Shown here piece by piece: positions 8,487 through 60,374 of a DNA stretch of 64,000 bases; the first letter of the stretch is position 1, and every line of letters starts with the position of its first letter. Source of the DNA: SAR324 cluster bacterium (lineage in GTDB: Bacteria; SAR324; XYD2-FULL-50-16; HCM1); contig PUHO01000005.1 of assembly GCA_002995645.1 (NCBI GenBank), forward strand, positions 77,125 through 141,124, in the 5' to 3' direction. Below the pieces are notes generated by a model, which was given only the letters and a program-made list of their open reading frames with translations, was not told the origin of the DNA and did no database searches. The position numbers and the translations under genes are program-made.

Positions 8487-9911
8487 TTATTTATTTGCTT
8501 TATGCGTTAAATATTTCAAGATTTCTCTTCTTGATTTTGGCATAACAACAGATTGTAACCAATCTTGTGTAGGGAAAATGTGGGGATCTGTTTGTACTGA
8601 AATAAACATACCGTCTTCTAATAATTTTTCAGAAGGATAAAAAACTTGATCAATCACACCGCCACTACAATGCAAGCCTACTTCTGTGTGAATAGAAAAA
8701 GCAAAATCTAAAACAGTAGCACCGTAACGAAATTCTTTAATATCGCCTTTTTCCGTAAAAACTTGTATTAATTTTTGTTTGTTACGAAGAAAAATATCGT
8801 CTATACGTAAATCTTTATATCGATTGGAAGCATCGTGTAACGTATCAAAATATATTTCAAGAAAATTTTTATATAATGCAGAGGTATACGTTTTTTCTCG
8901 CATTAAAGCTAACACCCCCATACGATTTGTATTATAAAACCTAGAAGTCATAATGTGAAAGGTCATAGGAATACCGTCTATCACCACTTGTGTAATAAGC
9001 GCACGCCAACCGTTTGCCATTGGATTAGATACATAATCACGTAAAGACAAAGGAATTGACACAAAATTAGTATGTAATAAACCAAGTACTTTGTAACAAT
9101 CTTCTACTTCTTTCGTTTTAATAATAATTTTATCAAATGATTTTTGTACGTTTTGATAGGATTTATTCAAAATCAAATCACTTACTTTCGTATATTCAGG
9201 ACGAATAGAATCAATAATTGTATCCGGCAATAACTCTACTAGGATTTTTAAAATAATCTCTAGTACTCCTTCGCTACTTGCTTGTACTTGCGCTAGTCTA
9301 GAAGCAATCCTCGCATACAGCTGAGGATATAAACAAGCATACGAACGATTACGTAATTCAGTGGCTAACTCACTCGTCCCTAAGCCTTCTGCTATTTCAC
9401 TATACACAAGCAAAGTTTCTCGTGTAATCTTTTTCTGTTTTGCACGACGTAAAGCTTTTATTTCTAGTAGATTATCTAATCTATCTATAAGCTTAATAAT
9501 AATAATACGAACGTCGTACATACCTCCTTCAATTATCTTGTACCAAGTTAAATTCTGTGATTCTTTAACTTTAGTCAAAGCTTTCACCATATGAAGTACA
9601 GTAGGTCCGAACTTTTCTTCTATTGTCTCTGGAGAAACGTTAGAATCTTCAATAACATCGTGTAAAAGGCAAACAATAATACTTTCAATATCAAGTAAAT
9701 ATTCGCTTGCTGTTAACGCCATGCGTAACGGATGGATAATATAAGGGACCCCGCTTTTACGCAATTGCCCTTCATGCGCTTTTTCAGCAAATTCAATTGC
9801 TTGTTGCACACGTTTTAACTCTAGCCCCGAATCTAAACTATGTCGTTGTATGGATATAGTTAACTTCCTTTTACATTCTTCTAAAGTAACTAAATTGCTT
9901 AGCAAAATCAT
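8487..9911 (-). CDS. Truncated long RelA/SpoT homologue: intact HD hydrolase, degenerate synthetase, TGS domain, no C-terminal ZFD/ACT region
   Basis: HD domain: FAEKAHEGQLRKSGVPYIIHPLRMA...LLHDVIEDS. The synthetase-like block CYKVLGLLHTNF...DYVSNPMANGWRALITQVV...TFHIMT aligns to CYxxLGxxH...DYIxxPKxNGYQSLHT...EVQIRT with key residues changed. TGS-like block: IQVFTEKGDIKEFRYGATVLDFAFSIHTEVG. Confidence 0.8.
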   Translation of the reverse strand: MILLSNLVTLEECKRKLTISIQRHSLDSGLELKRVQQAIEFAEKAHEGQLRKSGVPYIIHPLRMALTASEYLLDIESIIVCLLHDVIEDSNVSPETIEEKFGPTVLHMVKALTKVKESQNLTWYKIIEGGMYDVRIIIIKLIDRLDNLLEIKALRRAKQKKITRETLLVYSEIAEGLGTSELATELRNRSYACLYPQLYARIASRLAQVQASSEGVLEIILKILVELLPDTIIDSIRPEYTKVSDLILNKSYQNVQKSFDKIIIKTKEVEDCYKVLGLLHTNFVSIPLSLRDYVSNPMANGWRALITQVVIDGIPMTFHIMTSRFYNTNRMGVLALMREKTYTSALYKNFLEIYFDTLHDASNRYKDLRIDDIFLRNKQKLIQVFTEKGDIKEFRYGATVLDFAFSIHTEVGLHCSGGVIDQVFYPSEKLLEDGMFISVQTDPHIFPTQDWLQSVVMPKSRREILKYLTHKANK

Positions 9912-20112: not shown

Positions 20113-20189
20113 GGGCCAGTAGCTCAGCTGGTTAGAGTACATCCCTGATAAGGATGGGGTCGGTGGTTCGAGTCCACCTTGGCCCACCA
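20113..20189 (+). tRNA. tRNA-Ile (anticodon GAU), CCA encoded
   Basis: Hand-folded cloverleaf. Acceptor GGGCCAG/TTGGCCC; anticodon stem CATCC/GGATG with loop CTGATAA; T-arm GGTGG-TTCGAGT-CCACC; ends ACCA. Confidence 0.95.
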
Positions 20190-20221
20190 TAAGGGGCTTT
20201 TGTTATTTAAGTTATGTTGTT

Positions 20222-20297
20222 GGGGGATTAGCTCAGCTGGGAGAGCACCTGCTTTGCAAGCAGGGGGTCAACGGTTCGATCCCGTTATCCTCCACCA
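20222..20297 (+). tRNA. tRNA-Ala (anticodon UGC), CCA encoded
   Basis: Acceptor GGGGGAT/ATCCTCC including the G3:U70 Ala identity pair; anticodon stem CCTGC/GCAGG with loop TTTGCAA; T-arm AACGG-TTCGATC-CCGTT; ends ACCA. Confidence 0.95.
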
Positions 20298-20324
20298 TTA
20301 TCTCTAACTCTATAATTACAGTGC

Positions 20325-20397
20325 AGGTGCGTAGCTCAGCTGGGAGAGTACTACCTCGACACGGTAGTGGTCGGCGGTTCGATCCCGCCCGTACCTA
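20325..20397 (+). tRNA. tRNA-Val (anticodon GAC), no encoded CCA
   Basis: Acceptor AGGTGCG/CGTACCT; D-arm GCTC-AGCTGGGA-GAGT; anticodon stem CTACC/GGTAG with loop TCGACAC; T-arm GGCGG-TTCGATC-CCGCC. The discriminator A is followed by TAT. Confidence 0.85.
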
Positions 20398-52959: not shown

Positions 52960-53006
52960 GCATATAGATAAGTTTTTCCTAACAGCTTATTTATATGCAT
53001 TTTTTC
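52960..53006 (+). terminator. Hairpin terminator after the SPOR-protein gene
   Basis: 13-bp stem GCATATAGATAAG / CTTATTTATATGC with one mismatch and a 13-nt loop, followed by ATTTTTTC. Confidence 0.6.
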
Positions 53007-53147
53007 AAACAACCGCCCTTCTTCTTACATTAAAAGCAAAATATATACTTATATCCTATCAAGATATTATATATCATTTTGACAATAAACTATAATCTCT
53101 TTACACTATCTTTATAATAAAGCATATTTTATATATTAGGAGATAAG

Positions 53148-54254
53148 ATGATTATATCTATATTTAACAACAAAGGTGGCGTTGGTAAAACAACGTTACT
53201 ATATCATTTTGCTCATGCATTAAGTGAATTAGGGAACAAAGTATTATTACTTGATATAGATCCACAATGTAACTTAACAATCAATGCCATTGAGGAAGAA
53301 AAAATCCATGATATTTGGGAAAAAGAAGAACCTTTTATTGACGACTACACAGAAGCAAAGAAAGAGCATAGCGATGATGAATTTAACAGTTTATTAGAAG
53401 AATCTCGCTCGATTCATTTTCTTTTAAAACCACTAGAAGAAGATACTGGTGAAACGTTAATTGCTAAGCCATATAAATTAACTGATAATCTTGACATTAT
53501 TCCCGGCAATTTAACATTACAATTCTTTGAAGCTCATATATCTAGAAGATGGGGCGAAGCTTTAATGGGGAAAAATAGCGGTCTTCGTATCATTAAATCT
53601 ATTAAAGATTTAGCACAAAAATATAAAGAAGAATATAACTATGACTATGTTTTAATTGATACCTCCCCTAGTTTAGGTGATTTAAACAAAATAGGCGTTG
53701 CCCTGTCTGATTTCTTTTTTATTCCTTGTTCTCCTGATATTTATTCTATATATGGCATTAGAAATATTGGCAAAACTTTAGAAAGGTGGCATCAAGAATT
53801 TACTGTATTACAAAACGTATTACCTCAAAATATGCAAAAGAAATTAAATTTTCAAATGGTTAAACTCATTGGGTACGTTCCTTATAATTTAAAGAAATAC
53901 TCCAGCTCTTTAAATGAACTTGAACTTGCAACAGGACACTATGAACATGTAATAAAACTTCCAAAAGAAATTATCAAGCAAATTGATTCAAAATTCTTTG
54001 CTACTTCTGGAGAAACAATGAAAGAGATTATAAGCAAAAAAATCATCTACTCTCATAATACTTTTACAGGAGTGGCACAAAAATATCATCAACCTATATG
54101 GAAAGTCCATGATAACCTAAGCAAGTGGAATGAAGAAGATAAGACTACGCTCCAAAGCAAAAAAAAACAATATCAAGAAACCCGACCTATGTATCTTGCA
54201 TTTGCAAAAGAAATGATACAGAGAATAGAAAGAGGGACTAATGGGAATAGATAA
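53148..54254 (+). CDS. ParA/MinD-like P-loop ATPase (368 aa; extended relative to partition ParA)
   Basis: Deviant Walker A NNKGGVGKTTLL, A' box LLLDIDPQCNLT and a Walker B-like YVLIDTSPSLG. AGGAG lies 5 nt before the ATG. Confidence 0.85.
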   Translation: MIISIFNNKGGVGKTTLLYHFAHALSELGNKVLLLDIDPQCNLTINAIEEEKIHDIWEKEEPFIDDYTEAKKEHSDDEFNSLLEESRSIHFLLKPLEEDTGETLIAKPYKLTDNLDIIPGNLTLQFFEAHISRRWGEALMGKNSGLRIIKSIKDLAQKYKEEYNYDYVLIDTSPSLGDLNKIGVALSDFFFIPCSPDIYSIYGIRNIGKTLERWHQEFTVLQNVLPQNMQKKLNFQMVKLIGYVPYNLKKYSSSLNELELATGHYEHVIKLPKEIIKQIDSKFFATSGETMKEIISKKIIYSHNTFTGVAQKYHQPIWKVHDNLSKWNEEDKTTLQSKKKQYQETRPMYLAFAKEMIQRIERGTNGNR

Positions 54255-54933
54255 CATAGATAACATAATGTCATGGTATAGAGAAGCTACGCAAAAAAAT
54301 ATATATGTAGACAATACCAAAACGCTTTGCGATATTATACACGATCAAATTAGATCACACTTTGACGAGCTTCCAGAAAAAAAAGATATTGTTTATGATA
54401 TTCGTGGTCGTATTAAAGAAGAAGCAAGTTTAAAAGAAAAATTAAAAAGAAAACCAAAAACTATTAAAACAAAAGAAAAATTCTTTTCCCAAATTACCGA
54501 TCTAATTGGCATACGCATTCTAGTTTTATACCCACAACACCTTAAAGATGTACATAACTTTATACTAGAAAATAAAGATAAAGGGAATTGGATATTGCCT
54601 GAAGAACCAATAGCCTATACATGGGATAGTGATGTAAAAACATTCTTACATGACAAAGTTGGCATAAGCAAAAAAAAGATTAAGCCTAAAAGCAGTTTAT
54701 ATTCTAGTATACACTACCTAGTTAAGCCGAATGAGATTAAAACTACTCCTTGTTGTGAAATACAAGTACGAACCTTATTAGAAGAAACATGGGGAGAAAT
54801 AGATCATAGCTTCAATTATCCGAAAGAACATGAAAACAAGTACATTAAAAATAACTTAAAAGCATTAGCTAAGATCATTAGTGCAGGCAATAAACTAGTA
54901 GAAGGTATTTATGACTGCACCGCAGAAAAATAA
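54241..54933 (+). CDS. Stand-alone RelA/SpoT-synthetase-domain protein (small alarmone synthetase or toxSAS-like nucleotide pyrophosphokinase)
   Basis: Motifs GRIKEEASLKEKLKRK, ITDLIGIRILVLY, LYSSIHYLVK and CEIQVRTLLEETWGEIDHSFNY. Its ATG overlaps the stop of the upstream gene (14-nt overlap). Confidence 0.85.
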   Translation: MGIDNIDNIMSWYREATQKNIYVDNTKTLCDIIHDQIRSHFDELPEKKDIVYDIRGRIKEEASLKEKLKRKPKTIKTKEKFFSQITDLIGIRILVLYPQHLKDVHNFILENKDKGNWILPEEPIAYTWDSDVKTFLHDKVGISKKKIKPKSSLYSSIHYLVKPNEIKTTPCCEIQVRTLLEETWGEIDHSFNYPKEHENKYIKNNLKALAKIISAGNKLVEGIYDCTAEK

Positions 54934-55002: not shown

Positions 55003-55884
55003 CTAGTCTTGTACCGCGCCTTTCATTTGTATATCAAAATAAAAACCGGCAAGGTTATCGTTAACAACGCGAACGTCTAAAGCATTACCGTCTTGCCTTA
55101 ACAAACTATTGATTTTCAAAATATTTAAACCAGAATACAAAAATTTATCATGTTGATCACAAATCGTGTTCACCCATGTTTTATTCCATTTCATATCTAG
55201 TTGTTCCTCTAAATCAATATGTACTTGTAATTGATTAGCGTTATTTTGATTATCTGCCAACACACGTAACGTTACTGTCTTAGATTTTTGCAAAGACAAA
55301 ACTTCAGCGCATAAACGTTGTAGCACCTTAGTATATAAATTAAAATCTACTGACACATTAGGCGGGATATTGTCTGCATAACGAACGTCAACAACAACGC
55401 CGTGTTTTTCTAAAGGCTCTATAATCGGTTGCAATAAGGCGTCTAAAGCAACTTCTTTAGTGTCTATAATTTCATTGGTACTTAAATCTTGACAAAAATC
55501 TTCTACATGCTCAAATGAAGTTAACACCTTGGAAGCTTCTTGCATACAAGCTTGTAAGCTTAATTTAACTTCTTCGTCCGCAACGTTGCCAATAATTTCT
55601 TCTAGATTTTCAATCACTGCAGAAACCGGTTTTTTCAAATTATGCATAATATCGGCAATAACTTGATAATTTTCCTGATTCCCCGCTACTTCTTTTTGAT
55701 AGCGCTCAAGCCAAACTTGTTGTTGTTCTTGTAGCGTATTAATTTCTGATTTACTCTTTGCTTGCTCTTGCTCAAGTAAATTCATTCTTTCATGTAGCTC
55801 AGACATTTCGTTACTCATATCGCTTAATAAGCGATCTGTTTCCGTTAATATCTTCGGCTTGTTTAAGCGATTTACAGTAATCAC
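55003..55884 (-). CDS. Cytoplasmic histidine-kinase-like protein with an apparently degenerate ATP-binding domain
   Basis: N-terminal coiled coil; H-box-like ADIMHNLKKPVSAV; the C-terminal region has HATPase-like spacing but no clear N/G1/G2 boxes. GTG start at 55884, preceded by GGAG. Confidence 0.45.
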   Translation of the reverse strand: MITVNRLNKPKILTETDRLLSDMSNEMSELHERMNLLEQEQAKSKSEINTLQEQQQVWLERYQKEVAGNQENYQVIADIMHNLKKPVSAVIENLEEIIGNVADEEVKLSLQACMQEASKVLTSFEHVEDFCQDLSTNEIIDTKEVALDALLQPIIEPLEKHGVVVDVRYADNIPPNVSVDFNLYTKVLQRLCAEVLSLQKSKTVTLRVLADNQNNANQLQVHIDLEEQLDMKWNKTWVNTICDQHDKFLYSGLNILKINSLLRQDGNALDVRVVNDNLAGFYFDIQMKGAVQD

Positions 55885-56199
55885 CTGGACTCCATTACAT
55901 ATAGTTATCTATACAGTTATTTTGTCTCTATTTGGACAGTTTCTGTTTCTCCTAGAACTTAAATGCAAGAATCGCGACACAATAGTTATATCTTGTAAAT
56001 TTACTTCATGTAAAAAAAATAAACTCCAATTGTTTCAGTAATTTAAAAAAATCACTTAGACGCCGTTACATATAGTTATCTATACAGTTATTTTGTCTCT
56101 GTTGGGACAGCTTCTGTTTCTCCTAAACTTAAATGCAAGAAGCGCGAGACCATAGTTGTATCTTGTAAATTGACTTCACGTAAAAAAAACATACTCCAA
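55858..56199. repeat. Tandem duplication of about 170 nt (two copies)
   Basis: The core 55880-56029 aligns with 56050-56199. By hand count there are about 15 substitutions and one 1-nt indel. Copy 2 encodes the last roughly 37 codons plus the stop of the 56088..56987 gene. Copy 1 is non-coding in that frame and carries the RBS and GTG start of the 55003..55884 gene. Confidence 0.9.
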
Positions 56200-56987
56200 A
56201 AAATATAGGTAATAGGAAGGCTAATCGCATGAAGAATATAGCGAAATAGAAGATACGTAGGCGAGGAAAGAAGTTGAATACTTTGCTCTAATACCGCTTT
56301 GTTTAACGCGGCGTTATTTTTTCCACTAGGATCAACTAGTAAACTTTGCCAAAGTTGCATAAACTTAGTATTAGAAAGAATGTAAGGTAAGGTAAAAACA
56401 GAATCAAATAAATGAGAAAATAAATAAATACCCATAAGAGCAGCTAATATTTTAGAAAATTGTTTTGAAATTAATTTATAACTCGCTTGCAAACAAGGCA
56501 CTATAGCTTTAACATCAATTTGATTCCACAAAATCGCAAAATAATAACTAAAAAAATAAAATATAAATAAAGAAAAAATGATAACACTAACAATAAAGCC
56601 AAGCATTATATTTGCTTGCGAAAGTATGCTTACTAAGCCCATAAATTGCATCAAAAAATGAGAAATAAAATATAAAATATATACAAGCAAAATAAAAGGC
56701 TTTAATATTTGTAAGGTTGCCATAGGATTAACTAACCGATAAGAATAGGCGGTTGGCAAAGTTAAAAAAGTAGCGCCTGCCAATAAAGGCATATATATAA
56801 TATCAACAATCCCGGCAATATAACCGGGAAGTAGTAATTGTAAAATAAAAAAAGGAACAGAAACTAAGAAATAGATTGTTATATAAGAAGTAAAATAACG
56901 CTTATATAACAAGATAGCTTGCTTTAATAAGCCAAGGAAATTAGGAGAGAAAACAATATCAGCCGGGGTAATGTTAGTTTGATTCAT
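56088..56987 (-). CDS. Polytopic integral membrane protein, unknown function
   Basis: A 299-aa protein with about 6-7 hydrophobic segments. No recognisable motif. Confidence 0.55.
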   Translation of the reverse strand: MNQTNITPADIVFSPNFLGLLKQAILLYKRYFTSYITIYFLVSVPFFILQLLLPGYIAGIVDIIYMPLLAGATFLTLPTAYSYRLVNPMATLQILKPFILLVYILYFISHFLMQFMGLVSILSQANIMLGFIVSVIIFSLFIFYFFSYYFAILWNQIDVKAIVPCLQASYKLISKQFSKILAALMGIYLFSHLFDSVFTLPYILSNTKFMQLWQSLLVDPSGKNNAALNKAVLEQSIQLLSSPTYLLFRYILHAISLPITYIFWSMFFLREVNLQDTTMVSRFLHLSLGETEAVPTETK

Positions 56988-57791: not shown

Positions 57792-60374
57792 ATGCAAAAT
57801 AACCAGTCGCAATATTCACTACTTCCAGCTAAGAATTCCTCTATTCTACAGGCAGCAGAAGATATTCTTTCGTTTTATCCTGTTTTAAAAACTTGCCTTG
57901 AAGCTATAGACAATCTTCCTGATATTATAGAATACGGTTTTTTGCAAGAAAACGATATTATTGTGCAACAAGGAGAGAAAGGTTATGATATTTTTTTGAT
58001 TTGCGATCAAAAAGTAGACGTTGTTGTTCATGAACAACTTTTGTATTCTATGGAAGGTCCTGTTGTTATTGGGGAAAAAGCAATTGTAGCGCCAGATAAT
58101 ATAAGAGCGGCAACGATTTGCGTTACACCGCAACATACTTGTTTTGTTTTAAAAATACCTCTTGGTAAGTTTTTACAAAATATCCATGATAAATCTATTC
58201 AAGACACCGATTTTACATTACAAGCTCATTTATTTTCAAATTTCTTTACACGAATACAAAAACGGCTTTTAGATAATATTTCTATTCAAAAGAACTTATG
58301 GGAACAAGTGAACAACACGGCAACGCTTTTAAATATACAACTCATTAGCAAAGCTATTACGGCAAAGAAAATACAACCTTGGTCTTTTCCCCTACAAGAA
58401 TCTATAGCTGCCTATTTAAAGCAATATTTTAACATTAATTGGAAAACTGTCACGACTATTGATTCCGAAAACTTACATACAGTCTTATTACAGCTATTAA
58501 ACAAGCTTCATCCTGCTTCAAAATATAAATTAGAACCAGAACAATATAAAGCAAAAATAAAACTAATTTGGAACGACTGGATAACAAAAATAGCCACTCA
58601 TATTGTAGCGCATATGGAAAGCGATCTCTTGCCTATATCTTTGCAAGACATTCAACTTTTTAATCCTGCCAATTACCATTTAACTTTAAAAAATACACTC
58701 TCTAACATTGAAAGCACACTTATCAGTAAAAACGAGTCTAGCAAAGCAGAAGAAAACCCACTCTCTCAATTTTTAAAACCTTCTGCACAAGGTGATCTTT
58801 GGCTTGATATATTTAGTTATTTTAATTTTTTAGATACTAATTATACGTTAATAGAAAATAAGCGTTTCAAAGCGGATACAGCGCAGAAACTAACGTTAGT
58901 TGCGTCAAAATATGAAAATGAATTTAACATGTCCATTGCAAGAATGCGCGATTTTCTTAAGAAAATACAAGGACTTTCTTTTGATTTTTCTAGTATAAAT
59001 AAAAGTGAGCAAAGAAAAACAAAGTTAAATAAAGCATTATCTATTATTTATCGTTTTTGGCACAACTATAATGCATTTAACTATAATACACAAAATGCAA
59101 AAACCCATCATAATGAATTTTACTATGAAGTAGGCGTATATCCGCGATTTATTGATTTATTGAATATTTCTGCCGGACATATGAAATCAGTATTACACAC
59201 CGCTTTTGCTATTCTTAATCAAGAATATAATCTTTCTCTTAACTTTAATATAGAAGATTTACAACGCTATTTGTACGTTGTTTTTCTTAATAAGCAGCAA
59301 CAAGTACCTTTTACTGAATGTAAAAGACACCTTTGGATACCGTTATCAGAGAATATAACCTTTCATCATGTAACAGAAACTTTTCCTCATATTAGTCGGG
59401 GGCGATTATTAAGCACAGTAGGCTGGGATAATGAAATATATACTAATGATTCCCACATTAACGAGTCTAATAATGCACAGAATTATGCTTTTACAGTCCA
59501 AGACGCAGATGAAATATTACCTCTTGCGTTCTTTATCCCTTTTGAAGAACTTCCTTGGATGCGTAGCGTTAATCCTCCTTTAGACGTATTCAACGACGAA
59601 TACCTTCCTTTAATGCAATGGATTATTGGGAAATACATACAATACATAGAAGAGCTTAATTCACAGCTAGAACGATTAAACTATCATAAAAGCACTATAG
59701 AAGTTTCTACATTACAAGAAACTTGGATCAAACAATTTGAAACGCAAGCTTTAACTTTAACAAATGATACGTTTAATGCTATTAAACAAATGCTTAAAAA
59801 AATCTTTAAAGTCAACCTTCCGGCAAATACGTCTTCTTCAGTTATATCTAAACAGTTATATAATCAATTTACAGTTATAACTGAACAAACCATGACTTCT
59901 AGCTCAAACGAAGAAAAGAGTAATCACAGCTATACTCTTTGGCGACAAGCTTTAAGTGATATTATCAAACTCATTGCTAAAATAGATTCTTCTGTCTTTA
60001 ACTCAACAACAGTTACACACGAAACACCTATACTTATCAATTTAAAAAACGAGTTAACTAATTTATTTCAACAATATAATATTGATATAAAAAATATGAT
60101 CTTTACTACACACCAAGATCATACGGAAATTATTATAAATCTCAAAGGAGCTCTTGCCTTGCTGCGTGACTCTTCAAAAAACAGACTTGATTTTTTTAAT
60201 AAGCTACTTAGCGCTTTAAGTGCTAATACGCAAGAAATGTTACTTTCATTAAATCAAACGCATCAAGAAATAGAAACCTTAAAAACAGCGCAAGAAAATG
60301 AAGAAGAGCAACAGAAAATGAGAGATTTAAAAATAAAAATAGCAGTTTTACGAAACAACCTGCAAGAATTGTAA
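57792..60374 (+). CDS. Large protein with an N-terminal cyclic-nucleotide-binding-like domain; remainder unknown
   Basis: Residues about 45-125 (FLQENDIIVQQGEKGYDIFLICDQKVDVVV...VIGEKAIVAPDNIRAATICV...CFVLKI) follow the CAP-effector-domain pattern (G..GD..y.i..G.v.v ... GE.al ... R.AtV.A). The remaining roughly 730 aa are Asn/Gln/Leu-rich and helical. Confidence 0.55.
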   Translation: MQNNQSQYSLLPAKNSSILQAAEDILSFYPVLKTCLEAIDNLPDIIEYGFLQENDIIVQQGEKGYDIFLICDQKVDVVVHEQLLYSMEGPVVIGEKAIVAPDNIRAATICVTPQHTCFVLKIPLGKFLQNIHDKSIQDTDFTLQAHLFSNFFTRIQKRLLDNISIQKNLWEQVNNTATLLNIQLISKAITAKKIQPWSFPLQESIAAYLKQYFNINWKTVTTIDSENLHTVLLQLLNKLHPASKYKLEPEQYKAKIKLIWNDWITKIATHIVAHMESDLLPISLQDIQLFNPANYHLTLKNTLSNIESTLISKNESSKAEENPLSQFLKPSAQGDLWLDIFSYFNFLDTNYTLIENKRFKADTAQKLTLVASKYENEFNMSIARMRDFLKKIQGLSFDFSSINKSEQRKTKLNKALSIIYRFWHNYNAFNYNTQNAKTHHNEFYYEVGVYPRFIDLLNISAGHMKSVLHTAFAILNQEYNLSLNFNIEDLQRYLYVVFLNKQQQVPFTECKRHLWIPLSENITFHHVTETFPHISRGRLLSTVGWDNEIYTNDSHINESNNAQNYAFTVQDADEILPLAFFIPFEELPWMRSVNPPLDVFNDEYLPLMQWIIGKYIQYIEELNSQLERLNYHKSTIEVSTLQETWIKQFETQALTLTNDTFNAIKQMLKKIFKVNLPANTSSSVISKQLYNQFTVITEQTMTSSSNEEKSNHSYTLWRQALSDIIKLIAKIDSSVFNSTTVTHETPILINLKNELTNLFQQYNIDIKNMIFTTHQDHTEIIINLKGALALLRDSSKNRLDFFNKLLSALSANTQEMLLSLNQTHQEIETLKTAQENEEEQQKMRDLKIKIAVLRNNLQEL

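Follow-up and report, generated by a model that had tools for sequence, protein, structure and literature searches.

What is the function of a ParA-like ATPase gene that runs, on the same strand, into a gene for a stand-alone alarmone synthetase? This question was raised by a locus in a 64,000-nucleotide (nt) stretch of contig PUHO01000005.1 (positions 77,125 to 141,124; assembly GCA_002995645.1) from a SAR324 cluster bacterium; this whole stretch is called the window below, and its coordinates are used throughout. The locus displayed a two-gene operon structure: gene 1 (53148–54254, + strand) encoded a 368-amino-acid (aa), long ParA/Soj-type deviant-Walker-A ATPase, and gene 2 (54241–54933, + strand) encoded a 230-aa, single-domain small alarmone synthetase (SAS). 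The first 14 nt of gene 2 were also the last 14 nt of gene 1 (54241–54254, + strand; ATGGGAATAGATAA), an overlap with translational coupling. The initial annotation, made without database searches, had proposed a candidate undescribed system; the coordinates, strands, and lengths of its open reading frames (ORFs) and the 14-nt overlap were as claimed, and the quoted motifs of both genes were all present in the translations. The sequence comparisons reported here identified the pair as a self-contained, horizontally mobile two-gene cassette; on a modest balance of probability, it is a conflict/defense module, most likely of the anti-phage abortive-infection type, whose growth-arresting (p)ppGpp synthetase is under the control of the ATPase.

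Conservation, pairing, and mobility of the cassette

A species-level scan (one genome per species, 185,579 genomes) recovered at least 187 relatives of gene 2, the best 80 of which were examined with their surroundings. A ParA-like gene was located directly upstream, on the same strand, at every one of these loci that had upstream DNA: a strong homologue of gene 1 at 75 loci and a more divergent ParA (25–27% identity) at L051 and L083; L008 and L014 ended at a contig edge, and L050 and L079 came without upstream DNA. The spacing between the ParA and SAS genes was −20 to +14 nt in 65 of the 75 loci. The pairwise distances of the two proteins were correlated (r = 0.84), a value reached by none of 2,000 permutations in a Mantel test. 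No third conserved gene was found at the 80 loci, the largest cluster of flanking genes being present at four of them, and the flanking genes were unrelated from locus to locus.

The hosts covered about 10 phyla, with Bacteroidota, alpha-, beta-, and gamma-Proteobacteria, Campylobacterota, Bacillota, Myxococcota, Desulfobacterota, Poribacteria, a Gastranaerophilales metagenome-assembled genome (MAG), and others; the adjacency on which the initial annotation had built its proposal was thus conserved across genomes. An exhaustive profile search gave 591 clusters at 50% identity (E ≤ 1e-30), and the cassette was rare and patchy (about 0.1% of species). Strict pairing, co-divergence, the lack of a third gene, and the wide host range therefore characterized a self-contained cassette that moves horizontally.

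The window copy itself had the composition of a foreign, mobile cassette. Genes 1 and 2 showed the lowest CpG observed/expected ratios of the 44 ORFs in the window (0.60 and 0.81; z = −2.95 and −1.87, respectively), and their GC contents (0.31 and 0.30, versus 0.342 for the window) ranked 5 and 4 of 44, which placed both among the five most AT-rich ORFs. An earlier remark, made by eye, that the pair was AT-rich and CpG-poor thus held when computed.

The alarmone synthetase

Gene 2 matched Pfam RelA_SpoT (5.8e-18), contained no HD hydrolase domain, and belonged to a family of stand-alone SASs of about 225 aa with 35–52% identity. Its catalytic motifs were intact, and the residues R57/K59/K67/K71, D87-G90-R92, Y154-S156-H158, and E173-Q175-R177 were invariant across 40 homologues. 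Between syn2 and syn3, about 20 extra residues were present relative to RelQ/RelP, and these included an invariant A125-x-x-W128-D129. The AlphaFold2 (AF2) model (predicted local distance difference test [pLDDT], 90.8) was composed of the synthetase fold plus one terminal helix only. The best Foldseek matches of this model were RelQ/RelP (E ~3e-9; template modeling [TM] score up to 0.84), and the TM score was lower for CapRel (0.35), FaRel2 (0.44), and the exported Streptomyces alarmone synthetase 8VX3 (~0.5). A profile search of PDB sequences gave RelP/RelQ at ~1e-11 to 2e-11 and CapRel at E = 0.43.

The question of whether gene 2 is a housekeeping SAS had a divided answer: it scored 48.6 bits against GTPPhKinYjbM, the RelQ/YjbM equivalog with a cut-off of 320, and so fell below that class, but its nearest relatives by fold and sequence were nevertheless RelQ/RelP. 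Because of this closeness, the term 'toxSAS-like' (toxSAS, toxic SAS) used for gene 2 in the initial annotation rests on context and not on similarity.

Guanosine 3'-pyrophosphokinases carry xxR in syn2, SxH in syn3, and IR in syn4, and (p)ppApp synthetases carry RYT, GxN, and YH, respectively (PMC12226406). Gene 2 had xxR, SxH, and VR and was of the guanosine type at all three sites of this correlative signature. From its RelQ/RelP-like fold together with these motifs, a (p)ppGpp-type product is predicted, and gene 2 would likely make (p)ppGpp.

The same SAS clade also included longer proteins. P0413 (619 aa) and P0448 (813 aa) were fused to long TPR arrays, and other long representatives carried a methyltransferase (P0363), a CBM_3 domain (P0369), or unannotated C-terminal extensions of 150–290 aa; some of these long fusions may be gene-calling artifacts. 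The TPR array is a sensor-like module, and such fusions hint that the SAS clade may serve as an effector with interchangeable sensors.

The ParA-like ATPase

Gene 1 matched Pfam AAA_31 (1.4e-31) and CbiA (1.7e-15). In 36 homologues, the signature lysine (Lys9), the Walker A lysine (Lys14), the A' box aspartates (Asp36/Asp38), and the Walker B aspartate (Asp171) were invariant; at the level of these motifs, the ATP-dimer switch is conserved. The family had a length of about 365–372 aa with conservation along the full length (42–53% identity at about 98% coverage), and it displayed two regions of its own: (i) a family-specific insertion at about residues 50–110 and (ii) a C-terminal region (about residues 215–368) containing the block HNT...AQKYHxPxW, which was likewise invariant in the 36 homologues.

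The AF2 model of gene 1 (pLDDT, 90.5) had as its best Foldseek match 3PG5 (361 aa; E = 1.5e-15 by fold and 1.9e-23 by sequence), followed by Soj, pSM19035 delta, pNOB8 ParA with non-specific DNA, and McdA, with MinD behind. 3PG5 is Corynebacterium diphtheriae DIP2308, an uncharacterised structural-genomics protein, and was the sole solved structure sharing the extended length of the gene 1 family. Judging from this family resemblance, gene 1 probably binds the nucleoid (DNA).

Gene 1 scored 74.3 bits against NCBIfam ParA_partition (equivalog cut-off, 180) and 30.1 bits against minD_bact (cut-off, 212.9), and it was far under the equivalog cut-offs of RepA, SopA, PrgP, and BcsQ. No parB-like gene adjoined the pair within the window and no third gene accompanied it across the 80 loci, so that the initial annotation was right both in reporting no adjacent parB-like gene and in setting gene 1 apart from ordinary partition ATPases.

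A distant long ParA-like protein of 368 aa was encoded by the P22-like Salmonella phage ST160 (L086, 3009–4562) and also by SE1 and ST-32; it had 26% identity over 87% of gene 1 and no SAS partner. In ST160, its gene adjoined that of a small DUF3024 protein and was located between the c2 repressor and an N-like antiterminator, an interval corresponding to that of rexAB in lambda. From this arrangement, it seems that long ParA-type ATPases recur among the accessory cargo of phages.

Prophage hotspot and defense context

An orthologous pair was present in 7 of 5,426 complete Escherichia coli genomes, and each of the two E. coli proteins was 42% identical to its window counterpart. The pair of E. 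coli CEA224S, WP_089588522 and WP_201794907, is encoded at NZ_CP166080.1 905900–907683. In the two genomes inspected (L084 and L085), the pair was located inside a P2-like prophage, between the gpA (replication endonuclease)/DinI genes and the portal gene. The P2 gpA–gpQ interval (from replication gene A to portal gene Q) is a hotspot of anti-phage systems (Rousset et al. 2022, PMC9122126). Arrangement 110 in Table S5B of the same study, ParA/AAA_31 with RelA_SpoT, has 29 occurrences and an empty comment field, and the pair was not among the systems evaluated in its Table S2 (PMC9122126).

The Edwardsiella ictaluri copy (L059) was likewise located between a portal gene and gpA. That gpA was 43% identical to that of E. 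coli, the pairs of E. ictaluri and E. coli shared only 48% identity, and the nearest relative of the E. coli pair came from Shewanella (73% and 60%). Because gpA and the pair of Edwardsiella were divergent and the E. coli pair was nearest to Shewanella, the sequences suggest that two P2-like phages captured the cassette independently.

The P2 hotspot of E. coli CFSAN061762 (L085, 5512–6653) additionally contained a ComF-family phosphoribosyltransferase, which had weak ShosT/PsyrT similarity (1.3e-8), plus a 184-aa hypothetical protein; this locus is probably a second cargo system.

Strong PADLOC matches were found in at least 10 of the 142 immediate neighbors at the 80 loci (an approximate count), and these comprised PD-Lambda-1 (1e-189), a type IIG restriction-modification enzyme, a type I S subunit, LmuB, AbiEi, mad3, and PDC candidates; resolvase, transposase, and Phage_GPA genes were also among the neighbors. 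The defense context was strong in the enterobacterial prophages and moderate elsewhere.

PADLOC-DB 2.0.0, searched with the window and E. coli pairs, contained no model for the pair, whose matches were a P-loop-level one to PDC-M28B (8.7e-8, 35 residues) and a domain-level one to PDC-S33 (1.8e-7). Literature searches retrieved no paper describing, naming, or testing a ParA-like/alarmone-synthetase system, bar the uncommented row of Table S5B. The earlier claim of an undescribed system thus stood in part: the pair has neither a name nor a test in the papers retrieved and lacks a PADLOC model, but it had already been recorded as row 110.

Proposed function and mechanism

The nearest functional precedent, which couples an alarmone synthetase to a DNA-associated partner, is PANGU type I, composed of Pag1A, a YejK-like nucleoid-associated protein (NAP), and Pag1B/GRel, a toxSAS reported to produce pppGpp; when phage nucleases degrade the host genome, the chromosome-bound YejK-like protein is freed, and the GRel toxSAS is activated (bioRxiv 10.64898/2026.04.06.716658). 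It is because of the strict pairing, the mobility, the P2 hotspot, the intact motifs, the PANGU precedent, and the TPR-fused relatives that a defense role, with the ATPase as controller, is favored for the pair.

In the mechanism that we propose, gene 2 would be the effector, moving pyrophosphate from ATP onto a guanine nucleotide. Once unleashed, it would flood the cell with (p)ppGpp and drain ATP and GTP, and both effects would stall transcription, translation, and phage replication. Gene 1 would be the controller, alternating between a monomer and an ATP-sandwich dimer with probable non-specific nucleoid binding; its nucleotide- or DNA-bound state would report infection, e.g., through host DNA being lost or occupied or through a phage protein stimulating its ATPase, and this state would decide the activity of the synthetase. 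By analogy to the NAP-GRel pair of PANGU, we lean slightly toward the ATPase as a licensing or activating partner rather than a simple antitoxin. The more specific version, in which a ParA/Soj-family ATPase acts as an immune sensor whose ATP/DNA-dependent dimer switch monitors the nucleoid or phage DNA/protein and allosterically licenses a RelQ-like synthetase, is put forward tentatively, as a doubtful but serious possibility.

Several observations weigh against the defense reading. As to the proteins, no validated toxSAS was as near to gene 2 as housekeeping RelQ/RelP were, in sequence or in fold, and motif swaps between synthetases failed to switch specificity, which makes the guanosine-type signature correlative (PMC12226406). 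As to the genomic context, the window copy was surrounded by housekeeping genes (ribD, ribE, coaX, a SPOR-domain gene, and engB), with no integrase, prophage, or mobile-element gene and no PADLOC match beside it. Most neighbors in the 80 loci were ordinary genes, and PADLOC run on the ten largest neighbors identified one defense protein (LmuB); the defense-island signal is therefore confined to a minority of loci. A tblastn search of gene 2 against plasmid and phage records gave no match covering at least 80%, and the matches obtained belonged to other SAS families, e.g., that of Bacillus pXO1.

The disrupted copies also gave a mixed pattern with no clear direction of control: L038 had a nonsense codon at a conserved Trp of the SAS and an intact ParA, L046 (ParA frameshift) and L081 (C-terminally truncated ParA) had an intact SAS, and L027 had both genes broken; all four were MAGs, in which sequencing errors are possible. 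The initial idea of a self-contained module of the toxin–antitoxin (TA) or abortive-infection kind was supported by all the comparisons made, namely, the conserved pairing, the mobility and foreign composition, the P2 hotspot, the lack of a partition partner, and the score of gene 2 under the RelQ/YjbM cut-off.

Alternative explanations

The first alternative is a type II-like TA (addiction) module, in which the SAS would be constitutively toxic, the ParA-like protein would neutralize it by binding, and the pair would stabilize its carrier element. The overlapping bicistronic architecture was kept across lineages, as it is in toxSAS TA loci, ParA and SAS co-diverged, the pair was carried on prophages, and the SAS nonsense codon beside an intact ParA in L038 is the kind of lesion that a costly SAS would be expected to acquire. 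We nevertheless consider this explanation unlikely: an antitoxin acting stoichiometrically could make do with far less than a 368-aa ATPase in which every switch residue is invariant, the damaged ParA with an intact SAS in L046 and L081 would be lethal if these lesions are real, tblastn of gene 2 did not find the family on plasmids, and the SAS is remote from validated toxSAS. TA and defense roles are not mutually exclusive.

A physiological alarmone source, in which the ATPase would tie (p)ppGpp synthesis to the state of the chromosome, nucleoid, or cell cycle and the pair might replace a lost synthetase of a long RelA/SpoT homologue (RSH), is more improbable still. Such an RSH was present in the window (8487–9911, − strand; 474 aa): it harbored intact HD hydrolase and TGS domains and no C-terminal regulatory domains, its RelA_SpoT match was under the Pfam cut-off, and its synthetase motifs were destroyed (EYTK for RxKxxxS, WRALI for YxSxH, and TFHIMT for EhQhRT), which agreed with the initial description of it as synthetase-dead. 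Its family (about 460–480 aa, 42–47% identity) was found in uncultured Proteobacteria- and SAR324-labeled MAGs. The window thus contained a (p)ppGpp hydrolase and no synthetase other than gene 2, but with only 64 kb of the source genome visible, another synthetase may exist elsewhere. The RelQ/RelP-like fold, the guanosine-type signature, and the housekeeping surroundings of the window copy would suit an alarmone source as well. The rare and patchy distribution of the family (7 of 5,426 E. coli genomes, for example) in unrelated contexts, the prophage hotspot carriage, the foreign composition in the window, and a score well under the RelQ/YjbM cut-off all argue the other way. Compensation for the dead RSH, which the initial annotation had offered as its alternative, is possible for this genome but cannot explain the distribution of the family.

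A very improbable third alternative is that the pair is a non-defensive prophage or host-manipulation moron, tuning host growth or lysogeny (damped induction or dormancy) for its carrier. (p)ppGpp is a global growth regulator, and the cassette did occupy a variable cargo region of P2-like prophages. However, most copies were outside recognizable prophages, with gpA and portal genes nearby at only 1 of the 80 loci, and the P2 hotspot is known for the anti-phage systems that it harbors (PMC9122126). A ParA system that partitions DNA or positions cargo, but with an unusual partner, is a reading that a ParA/Soj-like core and a deviant Walker A motif would allow; it was rejected as extremely improbable, given the low ParA_partition score, the lack of a conserved ParB-like or other third gene, the chromosomal location of the copies with absence of the family from the plasmid records searched, and a partner that is an enzyme with intact catalytic motifs.

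Should the tentative version with the ATPase as an immune sensor be true, the pair would be the first defense system built on a ParA/MinD-type switch, and it would represent a second, independently evolved instance of PANGU-like logic, the activation of an alarmone effector by a sensor bound to the chromosome. SASs are emerging effectors of TA and anti-phage systems. In the literature compared, the role of partner is filled by small antitoxins, hydrolases, or fused sensor domains and, in a very recent case, by a nucleoid-associated protein; a ParA-type ATPase would extend this range to a DNA-associated molecular switch driven by energy, and the ParA/MinD family would gain a role beyond positioning. 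The question also bears on when (p)ppGpp is a survival signal and when it is a weapon. The family is sizeable and present in cultivable, tractable hosts (E. coli, Pseudomonas, Yersinia, Proteus, Vibrio, and Aeromonas) and in a validated defense hotspot, and the hypothesis is therefore directly testable with plaque, toxicity, and nucleotide assays.

Boundaries, signals, and neighbors of the window copy

The gene pair was bounded by a terminator hairpin upstream and a convergent gene downstream. The upstream boundary was the intrinsic terminator of the SPOR-domain gene (52960–53006, + strand), which consisted of a 15-bp stem (52960–52998) followed by a U-tract; the hairpin had a folding energy (ΔG) of −15.9 kcal/mol (z = −6.8), and none of 200 shuffled sequences folded as well, which substantiated its earlier identification as a terminator. 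It had been overlooked by a consensus terminator scanner because its stem is AT-rich. A promoter-like site for both genes, TTGACA-17-TACACT (53079–53107, + strand), matched the consensus at 10 of 12 positions; this was a consensus match only, and such sites were no commoner in the region than in the shuffled expectation. Shine-Dalgarno sequences were read from the sequence as AGGAG for gene 1 (53138–53142, + strand; 5 nt ahead of the ATG) and GAGGG for gene 2 (54232–54236, + strand; within the end of gene 1). No direct or inverted repeats suggesting an insertion scar flanked the pair.

Downstream, neither the convergent gene (55003–55884, − strand) nor the following gene for a multi-pass membrane-like protein (56088–56987, − strand) had a Pfam or PADLOC match. 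An 860-aa ORF (57792–60374, + strand), located 2.9 kb 3' of the pair, had no Pfam match at E ≤ 0.001; its N-terminal ~140 residues matched the PADLOC PycTIR and CBASS 'Effector TIR' profiles (6.5e-11 to 2.8e-8), and this TIR-profile match covered what appeared, by eye, to be a cyclic-nucleotide-binding region. This ORF could encode another signaling or defense-type protein. At the gathering threshold, Rfam matched nothing in the window but three clustered tRNA genes (20113–20397, + strand).

Comparison with known systems

Gene 1 shared with ParA/Soj/McdA and 3PG5 the deviant Walker A with its signature lysine, the A' and B boxes, and the core fold; it was about 110 aa longer than Soj, and unlike the genes of ParA/MinD/McdA systems, it came without a ParB-, MinE-, or McdB-type partner, its partner being an enzyme. 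Gene 2 had its best structural and sequence relatives in housekeeping RelQ/RelP (YjbM/YwaC), with which it shared the syn motifs, including SxH; it was only about 18–23% identical to them, its extra residues carried the A..WD motif, and its family was obligately paired with a ParA-like gene, rare, and mobile.

The toxSASs FaRel, FaRel2, PhRel, PhRel2, and CapRel are, like gene 2, stand-alone RelA/SpoT synthetases with intact motifs and no hydrolase domain. Their TA loci form conserved, often overlapping bi- or tricistronic units across disparate lineages (Jimmy et al. 2020, PMC7229694), and the ParA/SAS pair was likewise tightly linked with a specific neighbor across lineages and was also found on prophages. 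Gene 2 was, however, outside the validated toxic subfamilies in the CapRel and FaRel2 comparisons given above, its predicted substrate is a guanine nucleotide rather than tRNA or ATP, and the toxSAS literature compared described no antitoxin comparable to its ATPase partner.

The proteins of row 110 in Table S5B of Rousset et al. 2022 belonged to the same family, and the E. coli proteins listed there were the orthologues found here; that row is unnamed, and the window copy differed in being chromosomal and outside any recognizable prophage.

PANGU type I and the pair reported here differed in that (i) the PANGU partner is a YejK-like NAP acting as a DNA-associated activator, while the partner here was an AAA_31/CbiA ParA/Soj-type ATPase; (ii) the PANGU effector binds its sensor through a C-terminal DNA-mimic module, while gene 2 was a single domain; and (iii) the pair here is known from sequence, context, and models, its DNA binding, activation, and defense being putative. 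The two systems resembled each other in being two-gene operons with the sensor gene (putative here) first and the small alarmone synthetase gene second, and both were widespread, modular, and defense-linked. The ParA/SAS pair is probably a two-gene SAS-based conflict module with a new class of partner.

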